This document shows, in pieces, positions 9,277 through 45,047 of a DNA stretch of 64,000 bases. The notes under the pieces are model-generated. The model made no database searches, was not told where the DNA came from, and worked only from the letters and a program-made list of their open reading frames with translations. Positions within the stretch are counted from its first letter, which is position 1. Every line of letters starts with the position of its first letter. Source of the stretch: Escherichia coli (lineage in GTDB: Bacteria > Pseudomonadota > Gammaproteobacteria > Enterobacterales > Enterobacteriaceae); NCBI RefSeq assembly GCF_013122565.1, contig NZ_CP053258.1. One strand, written 5' to 3'. The position numbers and the translations under genes are program-made.

Positions 9277-9420
9277 GACGATTTCAGCGGGACGCTGAAA
9301 CGGGAAAGCCCCTATAAGGAAAGGGTCATGATGAAGTGGATCATCATCGTGGTGCTCTTAGTCATAAGCTTCCCGGCTTACTAAGACTACCAGGGCGGGG
9401 GAAACCCCGCTCTACCCTCA
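9277..9420 (-). ncRNA. sib: Sib-family antisense sRNA (antitoxin) overlapping ibs copy 1; boundaries approximate
   Basis: Minus-strand sigma70-like promoter: TTGACA (plus 9450..9455 reverse-complemented), 17-nt spacer, TAATTT; the transcript would run antisense across the whole ibs ORF. Length set to about 140 nt by analogy with the known SibA/SibB RNAs. Confidence 0.6.
9328..9384 (+). CDS. ibs: Ibs-family type I toxin peptide, 18 aa (MMKWIIIVVLLVISFPAY)
   Basis: ATGATGAAG... ORF preceded by AAGGAAAGGG Shine-Dalgarno; hydrophobic peptide with the Ibs family signature MMK...VISFPAY. Confidence 0.8.
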   Translation: MMKWIIIVVLLVISFPAY

Positions 9421-9594
9421 CTCCTGAAATTATGCCTTCACGATAAGATTGTCAATCCGCAGGCTTTGTAGTCTGCGATCCTGCCAGCAAATATTCTTTG
9501 CGAGTCGTTACGCAATAATCACACTGGAAACTATTTTATCCGCAAGTCAGCGATAGACTGCATACAGGGCGAAAGGAGGTAAGCCGACGATTTC

Positions 9595-9738
9595 AGCGGG
9601 ACGCTGAAACGGGAAAGCCCCTCCCGAGGAAGGGGCCTTAAATAAGGAAAGGGTCATGATGAAGATACTCATCATCGTGGTGCTCTTAGTGATTAGCTAC
9701 CCAGCATACTAAGACTACCAGGGCGGGGGAAACCCCGC
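9595..9738 (-). ncRNA. sib: Sib-family antisense sRNA overlapping ibs copy 2; boundaries approximate
   Basis: Same minus-strand TTGACA/TAATTT promoter arrangement (TGTCAA at plus 9768..9773) as in copy 1. Confidence 0.6.
9656..9712 (+). CDS. ibs: Ibs-family type I toxin peptide, 18 aa (MMKILIIVVLLVISYPAY)
   Basis: Second repeat unit; same SD spacing and peptide architecture as copy 1. Confidence 0.8.
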   Translation: MMKILIIVVLLVISYPAY

Positions 9739-9939
9739 TCTACCCTCACTCCTGAAATTATGCCTTCACGATAAGATTGTCAATCCGCAGGCTTTGTAGT
9801 CTGCGATCCTGCCAGCAAATATTCTTTGCGAGTCGTTACGCAATAATCACAGAGGAAACTATTTTGTTCACGCGTTAGCGATAGACTGCATTCAGGGCGA
9901 AAGGAGGTAAGCCGACGATTTCAGCGGGATGCTGAAACG

Positions 9940-10083
9940 GGAAACCCTCTCCCGGAGAAGAGGGCTTTTAATAAGGAAAGGGTTATGATGAAGCACGTCA
10001 TCATACTGGTGATACTCTTAGTGATTAGCTTCCAGGCTTACTAAGAACACCAGGGGGAGGGGGAAACCTCTCCCTAACCCTCA
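9940..10083 (-). ncRNA. sib: Sib-family antisense sRNA overlapping ibs copy 3; boundaries approximate
   Basis: Minus-strand promoter with TTGACA (plus 10113..10118 reverse-complemented) and TAATTT after a 17-nt spacer. Confidence 0.55.
9985..10044 (+). CDS. ibs: Ibs-family type I toxin peptide, 19 aa (MMKHVIILVILLVISFQAY)
   Basis: Third repeat unit; ORF one codon longer than the other two and ending FQAY instead of FPAY. Confidence 0.8.
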   Translation: MMKHVIILVILLVISFQAY

Positions 10084-10264
10084 CTCCTGAAATTATGTCA
10101 CTCCGCCCTTAGTGTCAATCGACGGCTCTCCGTTCTTGCGAGGCGAATAGCAAAATTTTCTGCGCCGCCGGGCCTAATTCTGAAAGTTTCTTCGTTTGCT
10201 CTTATTTCATTATTGCAATCGGTATGATACCGGACCTCGATAATTCTCTAAGAAAGGATTTCTT

Positions 10265-25613: not shown

Positions 25614-26053
25614 AGTAAGTACAAAACCTATTCGTTGTATGACAAATGTCACAATTCGATCATGGATAAATCGGGGCAAAAATGCAATGTTGCAGCACTA
25701 TTTATCTCATATTATTTGAGGGTAATAACCTCACATTATCCCTGAATTAAAAGTGGTAATAATAAACATTATTTAAGAAATATCGCATGTGGAGACGCAA
25801 TATTAAATATTGTCAACCTAAAGAAACTCCTAAAAACCATATTGAATGACACTTAATATAATTCTTAAAAATAGCCAATTGCCGAATTGTTACCTTGCCT
25901 GCTATTCCGTTAGCTGTAACACTTCCTCCTGCATTATTGGAGAGCCAATATTCAATTACCATAATGTCACCTTATATTCGGAAGTTAATTTCCGCAATAA
26001 CCCTTTCTCATCAACGATTGTATGCAGAGAGGGTTTGAAAAATTAAGCTAAAT

Positions 26054-26092
26054 CAGTGTATTGGTAGCTAAAAAGCCAGGGGCGGTAGCGTG
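26054..26092 (+). promoter_or_regulatory. JUMPstart element with ops site (GGCGGTAGCGTG) in the wza leader
   Basis: CAGTGTATTGGTAGCTAAAAAGCCAGGGGCGGTAGCGTG about 180 nt upstream of wza; the GGCGGTAG core is the RfaH-recruiting ops motif. Confidence 0.8.
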
Positions 26093-26270
26093 TCTGGATG
26101 CCTGAAAGACCAGTCTGAATTATTCTGTCAATAGCCTGCGGATGAAATCAATTTTTTTAGGACTGATGCCAGTTAAATTTTTATTCAATTAACTGCAAGG
26201 TAAATGTGCATGGCGACATTGCTATTAATAGTGCACAGGATAATTACTCTGCCAAAGTGATAAATAAACA

Positions 26271-27861: not shown

Positions 27862-30024
27862 ATGACAGAAAAAGTAAAACAACATGCCGCTCCGGTAACG
27901 GGCAGTGATGAAATCGATATTGGTCGCCTGGTCGGCACCGTCATTGAAGCGCGCTGGTGGGTGATTGGCATCACCGCTGTATTCGCCCTTTGTGCCGTGG
28001 TTTACACCTTCTTCGCCACGCCGATTTATAGTGCCGACGCACTGGTACAAATCGAGCAAAGCAGCGGCAATTCGTTAGTGCAGGATATCGGATCGGCGTT
28101 AGCCAACAAACCGCCTGCATCGGACGCCGAGATCCAGTTGATTCGTTCGCGCCTGGTGCTTGGTAAAACGGTGGACGATCTCGACCTCGATATTGCGGTG
28201 AGCAAAAACACGTTCCCGATTTTCGGGGCGGGCTGGGATCGCCTGATGGGGCGTCAGAACGAGACGGTGAAAGTGACTACCTTTAACCGCCCGAAAGAGA
28301 TGGCGGACCAGGTGTTTACGCTTAATGTGCTGGACAATAAAAACTACACCCTGAGCAGCGATGGCGGCTTTAGTGCCCGTGGGCAAGCGGGCCAGATGCT
28401 GAAAAAAGAAGGCGTCACGCTGATGGTTGAAGCCATTCACGCCAGCCCGGGCAGTGAGTTTACCGTCACCAAATACTCCACGCTGGGGATGATCAACCAA
28501 CTGCAAAACAGCCTGACGGTAACGGAGAACGGCAAAGACGCAGGCGTACTGAGCCTGACTTATACCGGTGAAGATCGCGAACAGATCCGCGACATTCTTA
28601 ACAGCATCGCTCGTAACTATCAGGAACAAAATATTGAGCGCAAATCGGCGGAAGCGTCGAAAAGCCTCGCTTTCCTCGCGCAACAGTTACCGGAAGTACG
28701 CAGCCGCCTTGATGTTGCCGAAAACAAACTGAATGCCTTCCGTCAGGATAAAGATTCTGTTGATCTGCCGCTGGAAGCGAAAGCGGTGCTCGATTCGATG
28801 GTGAACATCGACGCACAGTTGAACGAACTGACCTTTAAAGAAGCGGAAATCTCCAAGCTGTTCACCAAAGTTCATCCGGCGTACCGCACGCTGTTGGAGA
28901 AACGTCAGGCGCTGGAAGACGAAAAAGCCAAACTTAACGGTCGCGTAACGGCGATGCCGAAAACCCAGCAGGAAATTGTCCGTCTGACCCGCGATGTCGA
29001 GTCTGGTCAACAGGTCTATATGCAACTGCTGAATAAAGAGCAAGAGCTGAAAATCACCGAAGCCAGCACCGTCGGCGATGTGCGCATTGTTGACCCGGCA
29101 ATCACCCAGCCTGGCGTGCTAAAACCGAAGAAAGGGCTGATTATCCTTGGGGCGATTATCCTCGGCCTGATGCTTTCTATCGTGGGTGTACTGCTGCGCT
29201 CGTTGTTTAATCGCGGTATTGAAAGCCCGCAAGTGCTGGAAGAACACGGAATCAGCGTCTATGCCAGCATCCCGCTGTCGGAATGGCAGAAAGCGCGCGA
29301 TAGCGTCAAAACCATCAAAGGGATTAAACGCTATAAACAGAGCCAGCTACTGGCGGTGGGGAATCCAACCGATCTGGCGATTGAAGCCATCCGCAGTCTG
29401 CGTACCAGTTTGCACTTCGCGATGATGCAGGCGCAGAACAATGTGTTGATGATGACCGGGGTTAGCCCGTCAATCGGTAAAACCTTTGTCTGCGCCAACC
29501 TGGCGGCGGTGATCAGCCAGACCAATAAACGCGTGTTGTTGATCGACTGCGATATGCGCAAAGGCTACACCCACGAGCTGTTGGGCACCAATAACGTCAA
29601 TGGGCTGTCGGAAATTCTGATTGGTCAGGGCGATATTACTACCGCTGCTAAACCGACCTCTATTGCCAAATTTGACCTGATCCCGCGCGGTCAGGTACCG
29701 CCAAATCCTTCTGAACTGTTGATGAGCGAACGCTTTGCCGAACTGGTGAACTGGGCGAGTAAAAACTACGACCTGGTGTTGATTGATACGCCGCCGATTC
29801 TGGCAGTGACCGATGCGGCAATTGTTGGTCGTCATGTCGGAACGACGTTAATGGTGGCGCGTTATGCGGTCAACACATTGAAAGAAGTGGAAACCAGTCT
29901 GAGCCGCTTTGAGCAAAATGGTATTCCGGTGAAAGGGGTGATTCTGAACTCCATCTTCCGCCGCGCCAGCGCGTATCAGGATTATGGCTATTACGAATAC
30001 GAATATAAGTCGGATGCGAAATAA
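27862..30024 (+). CDS. wzc: Tyrosine autokinase / polysaccharide co-polymerase Wzc (720 aa)
   Basis: Track ORF is 732 aa; start placed at the ATG at 27862 (MTEKVKQHAAPVTG...). Has a Walker A motif (SPSIGKTF) and a C-terminal Tyr-rich tail (YQDYGYYEYEYKSD). Confidence 0.9.
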   Translation: MTEKVKQHAAPVTGSDEIDIGRLVGTVIEARWWVIGITAVFALCAVVYTFFATPIYSADALVQIEQSSGNSLVQDIGSALANKPPASDAEIQLIRSRLVLGKTVDDLDLDIAVSKNTFPIFGAGWDRLMGRQNETVKVTTFNRPKEMADQVFTLNVLDNKNYTLSSDGGFSARGQAGQMLKKEGVTLMVEAIHASPGSEFTVTKYSTLGMINQLQNSLTVTENGKDAGVLSLTYTGEDREQIRDILNSIARNYQEQNIERKSAEASKSLAFLAQQLPEVRSRLDVAENKLNAFRQDKDSVDLPLEAKAVLDSMVNIDAQLNELTFKEAEISKLFTKVHPAYRTLLEKRQALEDEKAKLNGRVTAMPKTQQEIVRLTRDVESGQQVYMQLLNKEQELKITEASTVGDVRIVDPAITQPGVLKPKKGLIILGAIILGLMLSIVGVLLRSLFNRGIESPQVLEEHGISVYASIPLSEWQKARDSVKTIKGIKRYKQSQLLAVGNPTDLAIEAIRSLRTSLHFAMMQAQNNVLMMTGVSPSIGKTFVCANLAAVISQTNKRVLLIDCDMRKGYTHELLGTNNVNGLSEILIGQGDITTAAKPTSIAKFDLIPRGQVPPNPSELLMSERFAELVNWASKNYDLVLIDTPPILAVTDAAIVGRHVGTTLMVARYAVNTLKEVETSLSRFEQNGIPVKGVILNSIFRRASAYQDYGYYEYEYKSDAK

Positions 30025-37772: not shown

Positions 37773-38992
37773 AAATACTGGTCTACGGCATTAACTACTC
37801 GCCGGAGTTAACCGGCATCGGCAAATACACCGGCGAGATGGTGGAATGGCTGGCGGCACAAGGTCATGAGGTGCGGGTCATTACCGCACCGCCTTACTAC
37901 CCGCAGTGGCAGGTGGGCGAGAACTATTCCGCCTGGCGGTACAAACGAGAAGAGGGGGCCGCTACGGTGTGGCGCTGCCCGCTGTACGTGCCAAAACAGC
38001 CGAGCACCCTGAAACGCCTGTTGCATCTCGGCAGTTTTGCCGTCAGCAGTTTTTTCCCGTTGATGGCGCAACGTCGCTGGAAGCCGGATCGTATTATCGG
38101 CGTGGTGCCAACGCTGTTTTGCACGCCGGGAATGCGCCTGCTGGCGAAACTCTCTGGTGCGCGTACCGTGCTGCATATTCAGGATTACGAAGTGGACGCC
38201 ATGCTGGGGCTGGGCCTTGCCGGAAAAGGCAAAGGCGGCAAAGTGGCACAGCTGGCAACGGCGTTCGAACGTAGCGGACTGCATAACGTCGATAACGTCT
38301 CCACGATTTCGCGTTCGATGATGAATAAAGCCATCGAAAAAGGCGTGGTGGCGGAAAACGTCATCTTCTTCCCCAACTGGTCGGAAATTGCCCGTTTTCA
38401 GCATGTTGCAGATGCCGATGTTGATGCCCTTCGTAACCAGCTTGGCCTGCCGGATAACAAAAAAATCATTCTTTACTCCGGCAATATTGGTGAAAAGCAG
38501 GGGCTGGAAAACGTTATTGAAGCTGCCGATCGCCTGCGCGATGAACCGCTGATTTTTGCCATTGTCGGGCAGGGCGGCGGCAAAGCGCGGCTGGAAAAAA
38601 TGGCGCAACAGCGTGGTCTGCGCAACATGCAATTTTTTCCGCTGCAATCGTATGACGCTTTACCCGCACTGCTGAAGATGGGCGATTGCCATCTGGTGGT
38701 GCAAAAACGCGGCGCGGCAGATGCCGTATTGCCGTCGAAACTGACCAATATTCTGGCGGTAGGCGGTAACGCGGTGATTACCGCAGAGGCCCACACAGAA
38801 CTGGGACAGCTTTGCGAAACCTTTCCGGGCATTGCGGTTTGCGTTGAACCAGAATCGGTCGAGGCGCTGGTGGCGGGGATCCGTCAGGCGCTCCTGCTGC
38901 CCAAACACAACACGGTGGCACGTGAATATGCCGAACGCACGCTCGATAAAGAGAACGTGTTACGTCAATTTATAAATGATATTCGGGGATAA
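37769..38992 (+). CDS. wcaI: Colanic acid glycosyltransferase WcaI (407 aa)
   Basis: 407-aa GT1-like ORF beginning [24 protein letters not shown]... Confidence 0.85.
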
Positions 38993-40431: not shown

Positions 40432-40532
40432 TAGTTGAATAATCAACCGGAATAAATCTCCGGCAAATAACGACAAAAACAAAATTGGCCGCTTCGGTCA
40501 GGGCCAACTATTGCCTGAAAAAGGGTAACGAC

Positions 40533-44849: not shown

Positions 44850-45047
44850 CGACAACGGTTGCCGGGTGCAGCGTAAAACGCCTTATCCATCCTACGGTTC
44901 TGTGCTCGGGACCTGTAGGCCTGATAAGACGCGTCAGCGTCGCATCAGGCACTGAATGCCGGATGCGGCGTGAACGCCTTATCCGTCCTACGTCTCTGTG
45001 CTCGGGACCTGTAGGCCTGATAAGACGCGTCAGCGTCGCATCAGGCA
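44850..45047. repeat. BIME/REP cluster: two direct ~70-bp copies separated by a PU-type REP
   Basis: CCTTATCC(A/G)TCCTACG...TGTGCTCGGGACCTGTAGGCCTGATAAGACGCGTCAGCGTCGCATCAGGC occurs twice, separated by GCCGGATGCGGCGTGAACGCCTTATCCG. Confidence 0.8.

Follow-up and report, generated by a model that had tools for sequence, protein, structure and literature searches.

The 39-bp element at positions 26054–26092 of the window, as the analysed 64,000-nt stretch of Escherichia coli DNA is called here, is very probably the JUMPstart of the colanic acid leader and the site at which RfaH loads for anti-termination across wza-wcaM. A JUMPstart carrying an ops had been claimed at this place in a first-pass annotation and was borne out, on the (+) strand and with the sequence CAGTGTATTGGTAGCTAAAAAGCCAGGGGCGGTAGCGTG. 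RfaH loading with anti-termination across the operon, as proposed in the same annotation, is supported by sequence, position, strand, operon context and the published record. Of these, sequence, position, strand, family membership and conservation were established in the present analysis, and RfaH occupancy and the base-level mechanism are taken from the literature. The wza JUMPstart/ops is already known and well described, having been in the literature since 1994–1996 with RfaH occupancy there demonstrated in 2022, and is nothing novel as a finding; its use is as annotation, showing where elongation modified by RfaH begins in the colanic acid operon. The features of the leader and the operon are as follows.

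25819–25832, (+): block TAAAGAAACTCCTA, candidate RcsAB box; conserved, 10 of 14 positions agreeing with the RcsAB consensus TaAGaatatTCctA
25852–25870, (+): A/T-rich block CTTAATATAATTCTTAAAA, second candidate activator site; near-invariant in the cross-genus alignment
25887–25925, (+): promoter-like block with a putative -35 TTGCCT, a 17-nt spacer and a weak putative -10 AACACT; conserved across genera
26054–26092, (+): JUMPstart of the wza leader, 39 bp; full-length match to the Rfam model RF01707
26061–26079, (+): predicted JUMPstart 5' hairpin, UUGGU (26061–26065) with GCCAG (26075–26079) and a 9-nt loop; Rfam consensus structure
26081–26092, (+): ops GGCGGTAGCGTG, the last 12 bases of the wza JUMPstart, in the non-template strand; exact match
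26093–26270, (+): post-ops leader; conserved sequence blocks and nearly fixed length, more conserved than the early leader
26271–49010, (+): colanic acid operon wza-wzb-wzc-wcaA...wcaM, 20 genes; ORF map and RefSeq annotation of close relatives

Against RF01707, whose gathering score is 35, the stretch 26054–26092 scored 57.3 bits, with E-values of 1.6e-10 over the window and 1e-12 locally, and model positions 1–38 were covered both by this element and by a second one at 50337–50375. The wza element agrees exactly with the 12-nt ops consensus GGCGGTAGnnTG; when both strands were searched, exactly one copy of GGCGGTAGCGTG was found in the window, the chance expectation being about 0.008 copies in 128 kb of two-strand sequence (128000/4^12). 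The pause base U11 corresponds to position 26091 and G12 to 26092, so that the dinucleotide T11-G12 is present (T 26091, G 26092), and positions 1–8 read G-G-C-G-G-T-A-G in both ops copies, with the recruitment bases C3:G8, G4, G5, T6 and A7 thereby intact. The ops is on the same strand as wza, in its leader, about 130 nt downstream of the promoter-like block conserved across genera, and 179 nt separate its end from the ATG (26271), in agreement with the distance of about 180 nt given previously. Judged by its sequence, the wza element is a JUMPstart/ops signal possessing every sequence-level defining feature of the family. Eight further ops-like sites with two mismatches occur in the window, a number barely above that in shuffled sequences (mean 4.3, maximum 10), and were rejected as loading sites; those on the same strand within the operon lose essential bases, namely T6A at 28647 and G8A plus T11C at 38762.

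Upstream of the JUMPstart, the core ...TCCTAAAA of block 25819–25832 is kept in 11 leaders from at least five genera, and the reverse complement TAAGAATTATATTA of block 25852–25870 likewise agrees at 10 of 14 positions with TaAGaatatTCctA, taken here as the RcsAB consensus (reportedly that of Wehland & Bernhard 2000). From the conservation and this consensus we infer that an RcsAB box may be located in one of these two conserved A/T-rich blocks. The promoter, we infer, lies within 25887–25925, where the putative -10 reads AACAAT in other genera. This block is a better candidate than the sole sigma-70-like site returned for the wza leader by a consensus promoter scan (25938–25965), which was rejected as the promoter because it falls in the least conserved stretch of the alignment. 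About 110 nt before the JUMPstart, from about 25930 to 26040, vary freely across the 12 aligned colanic-type leaders.

On the downstream side, the distance from ops to the first aligned Wza residue (q13) is 213–218 nt in Escherichia, Citrobacter, Atlantibacter and RIT691 (215 nt in the window), 218–224 nt in Salmonella-type loci and 333 nt in one C. amalonaticus locus. Expressed as ops-wza spacing, the former group stays within about 5 nt of the 179 nt of the window, and Salmonella-type loci are up to about 9 nt longer. A search for conserved RNA structure in the post-ops leader (RNAalifold, nine leaders) found none supported, the covariation term being positive (penalising) and compensatory changes occurring in 2 of 35 pairs. 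The wza ATG is not preceded by a canonical Shine-Dalgarno sequence; the lack of a good one is typical of RfaH targets. The strong conservation of the post-ops leader is a further side observation of possible experimental worth.

Two other candidates in the leader were rejected. A long-range pairing of the JUMPstart 5' arm (26061–26067) with CUGCCAA (26249–26255) is invariant on both sides and shows no covariation, and a 7-bp match is expected by chance in a leader of such size. A 16-codon upstream ORF (26142–26192, MKSIFLGLMPVKFLFN), rejected as a conserved coding feature, has an intact frame in Salmonella arizonae and several Citrobacter and is lost by stop, frameshift or missing ATG in Citrobacter FP75, Atlantibacter and one further locus (L117).

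Probable RfaH loading at the colanic acid operon

The gene order wza-wzb-wzc-wcaA...wcaM, then galF, recognised from the ORF map, RefSeq relatives and the Wza domains, is that of the colanic acid operon. The wza ORF encodes 379 aa with Poly_export, SLBB and Wza_C domains (Pfam), and the operon measures 22.7 kb from the wza start (26271) to the wcaM end (49010), matching the earlier figure of ~23 kb.

RfaH travels with RNA polymerase, excludes NusG/Rho-dependent polarity and couples the ribosome. At this locus, transcription would begin at an RcsA/RcsB-activated promoter upstream of the JUMPstart (initiation control), and RNA polymerase would pause at ops U11 (26091), the consensus pause being T11/G12. 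The exposed non-template strand would then fold into a small hairpin in which C3 pairs with G8 while G5 and T6 are flipped out, and the N-terminal domain of RfaH would recognise this hairpin. RfaH would open and remain on the elongation complex instead of NusG, suppressing pausing and Rho-dependent termination, and would bridge to the ribosome via its refolded KOW domain, which would aid translation of a first gene without a good Shine-Dalgarno sequence. The predicted outcome is full-length transcription of the 22.7-kb operon once it is switched on by Rcs. The 5' end of the wza transcript is said to have been mapped by Stout in 1996, and an rfaH mutant was reportedly studied by Navasa in 2014.

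The bases concerned have been dissected: C3, G4, G5, T6, A7 and G8 are needed for RfaH recruitment, and T11 and G12 for pausing (Zuber 2018). In the same work, recruitment was abolished by the substitutions G4C, G5A, A7T and G8C, T11G ranked with the changes most damaging in vivo, as expected if pausing is essential, and G12C in vitro lost the U11 pause and kept RfaH recruitment; T11-G12 was common to every E. coli target of RfaH that had been validated by experiment (Zuber 2018). For the wza site itself, RfaH gave a ChIP signal at the ops in CFT073 delta-hns delta-stpA, and this signal disappeared in delta-rfaH (Hustmyer 2022, mBio, PMC9765446). Of 42 ops-like sites in CFT073, eight, wza included, lie in non-template leaders, and 8/8 bound RfaH; wza-wcaM was classed as a cryptic RfaH-regulated locus, and in the wild type in rich medium it was silent with H-NS at the promoter, RfaH being seen only after H-NS/StpA removal (PMC9765446). 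Because the locus is silent in rich medium in that strain, the wza element would matter only under Rcs induction of the operon. Colanic acid production has been referred to as "an RfaH-regulated process" (PMC3101779), and the cps JUMPstart is credited to Stout 1996 and Hobbs & Reeves 1994.

Within the operon, an algC RNA motif (RF02929, 77.3 bits) was located at 40479–40528 (+) in the cpsB-cpsG gap, directly upstream of the phosphomannomutase gene cpsG, and a REP-type naRNA4 element (RF02564, 72.9 bits) at 44918–44988 (-) within the untranslated gap of 276 nt that separates wzxC from wcaK. The latter gap could be the kind of place where Rho would act without RfaH.

Conservation and the second JUMPstart

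About 4,140 of 5,426 complete E. coli genomes, O157:H7 and laboratory strains included, carry the wza-type 39-mer in identical form; in a sample of 30 evenly spaced rows, 27 were 39/39 matches. Over the 701 bp of the wza leader region, 4,808 of the same 5,426 genomes show an identity of 95% or more, and in 4,818 a single match spans at least 80% of it. In the alignment of 12 colanic-type leaders, the JUMPstart upstream of wza shows no variation in Citrobacter, Salmonella, Atlantibacter and E. whittamii. A cross-genus survey, carried out as a pattern scan with one genome per species, returned at least 120 JUMPstarts in Enterobacterales, including Citrobacter, Salmonella, Enterobacter, Pantoea, Erwinia, Serratia, Rahnella, Brenneria and Pectobacterium. 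Among the matches listed, 32 of 120 precede wza-wzb-wzc, and 56 of 120 form a galF-downstream class situated a few hundred nt after galF.

JUMPstarts were also encountered on contigs with non-enterobacterial labels, namely Arthrobacter sp. GMC3 (L020, L021), an Erysipelotrichia MAG (L031) and a Peptococcaceae MAG (L065). The JUMPstart and flank of L088 and L124 are identical to those of L020, and several of these six contigs carry an E. coli-like galF (96–100% identity). They look like contamination or mis-binning rather than a true occurrence outside Enterobacterales. E. coli E69 (CP089930.1), a group 1 capsule strain, possesses two loci with one JUMPstart each, a wza-type JUMPstart with standard ops (L064, 5391–5428) and a JUMPstart with the ops GGCGGTAGCATA (L063, 2956–2993).

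The window has the gene order asmA, yegH (divergent), leader, wza-wzb-wzc-wcaA...wcaM, galF, second JUMPstart, ISAs1 transposase, O3-family cluster and gnd. Elsewhere in it, at 9313–10118 (-), are three genes for SIB RNA (Sib/Ibs type I antitoxin) arranged in tandem (RF00113, 141–150 bits each). The features downstream of wcaM are as follows.

49185–50078, (+): galF; annotation of the relative L002 transferred by coordinates, 100% tblastn match
50117–50174, (+): terminator-like hairpin after the galF stop codon, then TTTTATAT; predicted MFE -39.6 kcal/mol, z = -4.24
50337–50375, (+): second JUMPstart, in the O-antigen leader; RF01707, 56.9 bits; 259 nt after the galF stop
50364–50375, (+): second ops GGCGGTAGCGTA, G12A; 11/12, with the mismatch at position 12
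50613–51662, (+): ISAs1-family transposase ORF, 349 aa, intact; Pfam DDE_Tnp_1_assoc plus DDE_Tnp_1
51849–61922, (+): O3-family O-antigen cluster (GT4, wzx, wzy, others); RefSeq annotation of L002 and GT4 Pfam domains

The first-pass annotation had placed two RfaH-loading sites about 24 kb apart on the same strand, and the second element indeed lies 24,283 bp downstream on the (+) strand. Its description as near-identical held in part: the element at 50337 is real (56.9 bits with RF01707), but only 33 of 39 positions are identical and the ops differs. The two-site layout, which had been the reason for flagging the element, is the standard arrangement and recurs in several genera, a wza-type plus galF-type pair on one contig being found in C. 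werkmanii, Citrobacter FP75, S. enterica arizonae, E. whittamii and C. amalonaticus. Such pairs across genera therefore mark the two-loading-site arrangement as ancestral and general. The O-antigen JUMPstart follows galF in E. coli generally (PMC6128206), and the wza element confirms the standard layout of cps, galF and O-antigen cluster in the window.

Folding revealed no terminator-like structure between wcaM and galF (z = +0.6). For the hairpin at 50117–50174, which ends about 160 nt before the second JUMPstart and was missed by a simple terminator scanner, 0 of 200 shuffles folded as well. This predicted hairpin is probably the galF terminator, separating the cps/galF transcripts from the O-antigen unit, and these folding results fit a separate O-antigen transcription unit in need of its own RfaH loading site. 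The second JUMPstart would likewise serve the O3 O-antigen operon, as a separate unit after galF; the corresponding genes of L002 are annotated as "O3 family O-antigen flippase/polymerase".

The second JUMPstart is identical at 38/38 bases to that of K-12 and many other E. coli copies. Its ops agrees with a shorter published form, RGGCGGTAGYNT, and carries T11-A12 (50374–50375) instead of the pause dinucleotide T11-G12. A full 39-base match with A12 was present in 3 of 60 evenly spaced E. coli rows, nearly all others stopping at base 38, which suggests that A12 is a natural variant carried by a minority, about 5%, of the matched E. coli genomes; the genomes with A12 carry differing clusters (O3, O174, "O8-family wzx"). 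Of the 120 elements among the matches listed, 100 have G at position 12, 10 have A, 8 have T and 2 have C, that is roughly 17% non-G, and non-G12 was seen in 1 of the 32 before wza versus 10 of the 56 after galF. Conservation in the galF class is near-maximal to ops position 11–12 and about zero within a few bases beyond, and this collapse right after the ops places position 12 at the edge of a variable cassette. As a natural G12A ops allele ahead of several O-antigen clusters, A12 could be informative about the extent of pausing required in vivo for RfaH to load.

The ISAs1 transposase follows the second ops and precedes the first O3 glycosyltransferase (leader 50376–51848). The element is annotated as two ORFs in L002, with two ISAs1 features in each of 15 listed related genomes, and the arrangement with ISAs1 in the leader is common to only 16 of 5,426 E. 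coli genomes; no convincing terminal inverted repeats were found within 50376–51900. Suppression of polarity by RfaH would be expected to be helpful at this position, and an IS inside an RfaH-served leader could be informative about the tolerance of RfaH-modified polymerase to such insertions.

Competing interpretations

The Rfam entry, named "JUMPstart RNA", implies that the functional unit might be RNA, a nascent hairpin binding a factor or acting as a cis-regulatory RNA independently of RfaH, and a conserved stem-loop in the 5' half of JUMPstart was reported, without more, by Weinberg 2010. In the wza element each of the five pairs of the model is a standard one, the same 5-bp stem is present in the second copy (50337–50375) with the U.G pair changed to C-G, and a pyrimidine stands opposite the closing G in 118 of 120 elements among the matches listed; the pattern used in the survey, however, fixed four of the five stem pairs, so that the survey cannot show covariation. 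Folding energies gave the hairpin no thermodynamic support relative to shuffles (z = -0.03 and -0.22), and the minimum-energy fold predicted for the wza 39-mer in isolation is a different one. We know of no RNA-binding partner of JUMPstart. Moreover, a non-template DNA ops supports RfaH recruitment in reconstituted systems, and ops gives RfaH-dependent reporter expression in vivo, with the ops bases dissected (Zuber 2018). An RfaH-independent RNA function is very improbable. A different role for the stem is suggested by its geometry: its 3' end sits 12 nt upstream of the ops pause base U11, with a 5-bp stem and an 8–9-nt loop. The his-type (class I) pause hairpin has a 5-bp stem and an 8-nt loop and lies 11 nt from the RNA 3' end. 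By this analogy JUMPstart might be a composite signal, with the pause at ops lengthened by a hairpin in the nascent RNA, a proposal that we regard as unlikely. Were it true, the greatest effect would be expected in alleles without G12, such as the A12 ops of the O3 leader, and the conservation of the whole 39 bp beyond the 12-bp ops would be accounted for.

The older O-antigen literature raised the idea of JUMPstart as a recombination junction, and the element could accordingly be seen mainly as a homology patch for the exchange of polysaccharide cassettes, with anti-termination secondary. The galF class offers some grounds for this, in the drop of conservation from near-maximal to about zero past ops 11–12, in the non-G bases at position 12 in 10 of its 56 members among the matches listed, and in the O3, O174 and "O8-family wzx" clusters, which share an identical 39-mer and diverge immediately after it. 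The wza element, however, is conserved on both flanks, and the leader after its ops is conserved and length-fixed across genera; therefore no cassette boundary lies there. Nor does recombination account for the base-specific conservation of the RfaH-contacting residues or for the published RfaH ChIP signal, and a mainly recombinational role is considered quite improbable for the wza copy, the two roles being not mutually exclusive in the galF copy. That the motif arose by chance or has decayed, with no current function at a locus normally silent at 37 C, would agree with the transcriptional silence in rich medium in CFT073, but Rfam E-values of 1e-10 to 1e-12, identity of the 39-mer in about 4,140 E. 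coli genomes, invariance across genera while the flanking leader varies, and occupancy of the wza ops by RfaH on promoter de-repression in CFT073 (PMC9765446) leave this explanation with a negligible probability, and it can be regarded as already refuted by the conservation data. RfaH loading for anti-termination of wza-wcaM is retained as the very probable function of the wza JUMPstart.

Comparison with known systems

A counterpart at the level of outcome is the EAR/epsC RNA (with LoaP) of Bacillus eps operons, in which a similar result, processive anti-termination of a long exopolysaccharide operon from its leader, is attained. The parallel with JUMPstart was drawn by Weinberg 2010, although EAR/epsC is a Firmicutes RNA element of a different family and without sequence relation. 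The ops elements of waaQ (rfa), hlyCABD, kps and F tra (Bailey, Hughes & Koronakis 1997; Belogurov 2009) share the 12-nt ops, the RfaH mechanism and the placement in leaders of long operons for surface or secreted products. The operons and their initiation regulators differ; the cps copy requires RcsAB for initiation and, under standard conditions, is cryptic.

The second element of the window corresponds to the O-antigen (rfb) JUMPstart after galF (Wang et al. 1998; Marolda & Valvano 1998), from whose common form it differs by A12 in place of G12 and by the ISAs1 element before the first glycosyltransferase. The wza ops of CFT073 (Hustmyer et al. 2022, PMC9765446) is the orthologous non-template leader ops of wza-wcaM, and it was described there as "directly upstream of" the O-antigen (wzx) locus, itself bound by RfaH, so that the two sites are laid out as in the window. 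Occupancy in CFT073 was observed only in delta-hns delta-stpA, and the strain and O type differ, the window carrying an O3-family cluster. With the JUMPstart of the E. coli K-12 cps/wza leader (Hobbs & Reeves 1994; Stout 1996; Stevenson et al. 1996), the window shares the locus, gene order and element, with no substantive difference, and thus holds another strain's copy of the same signal.
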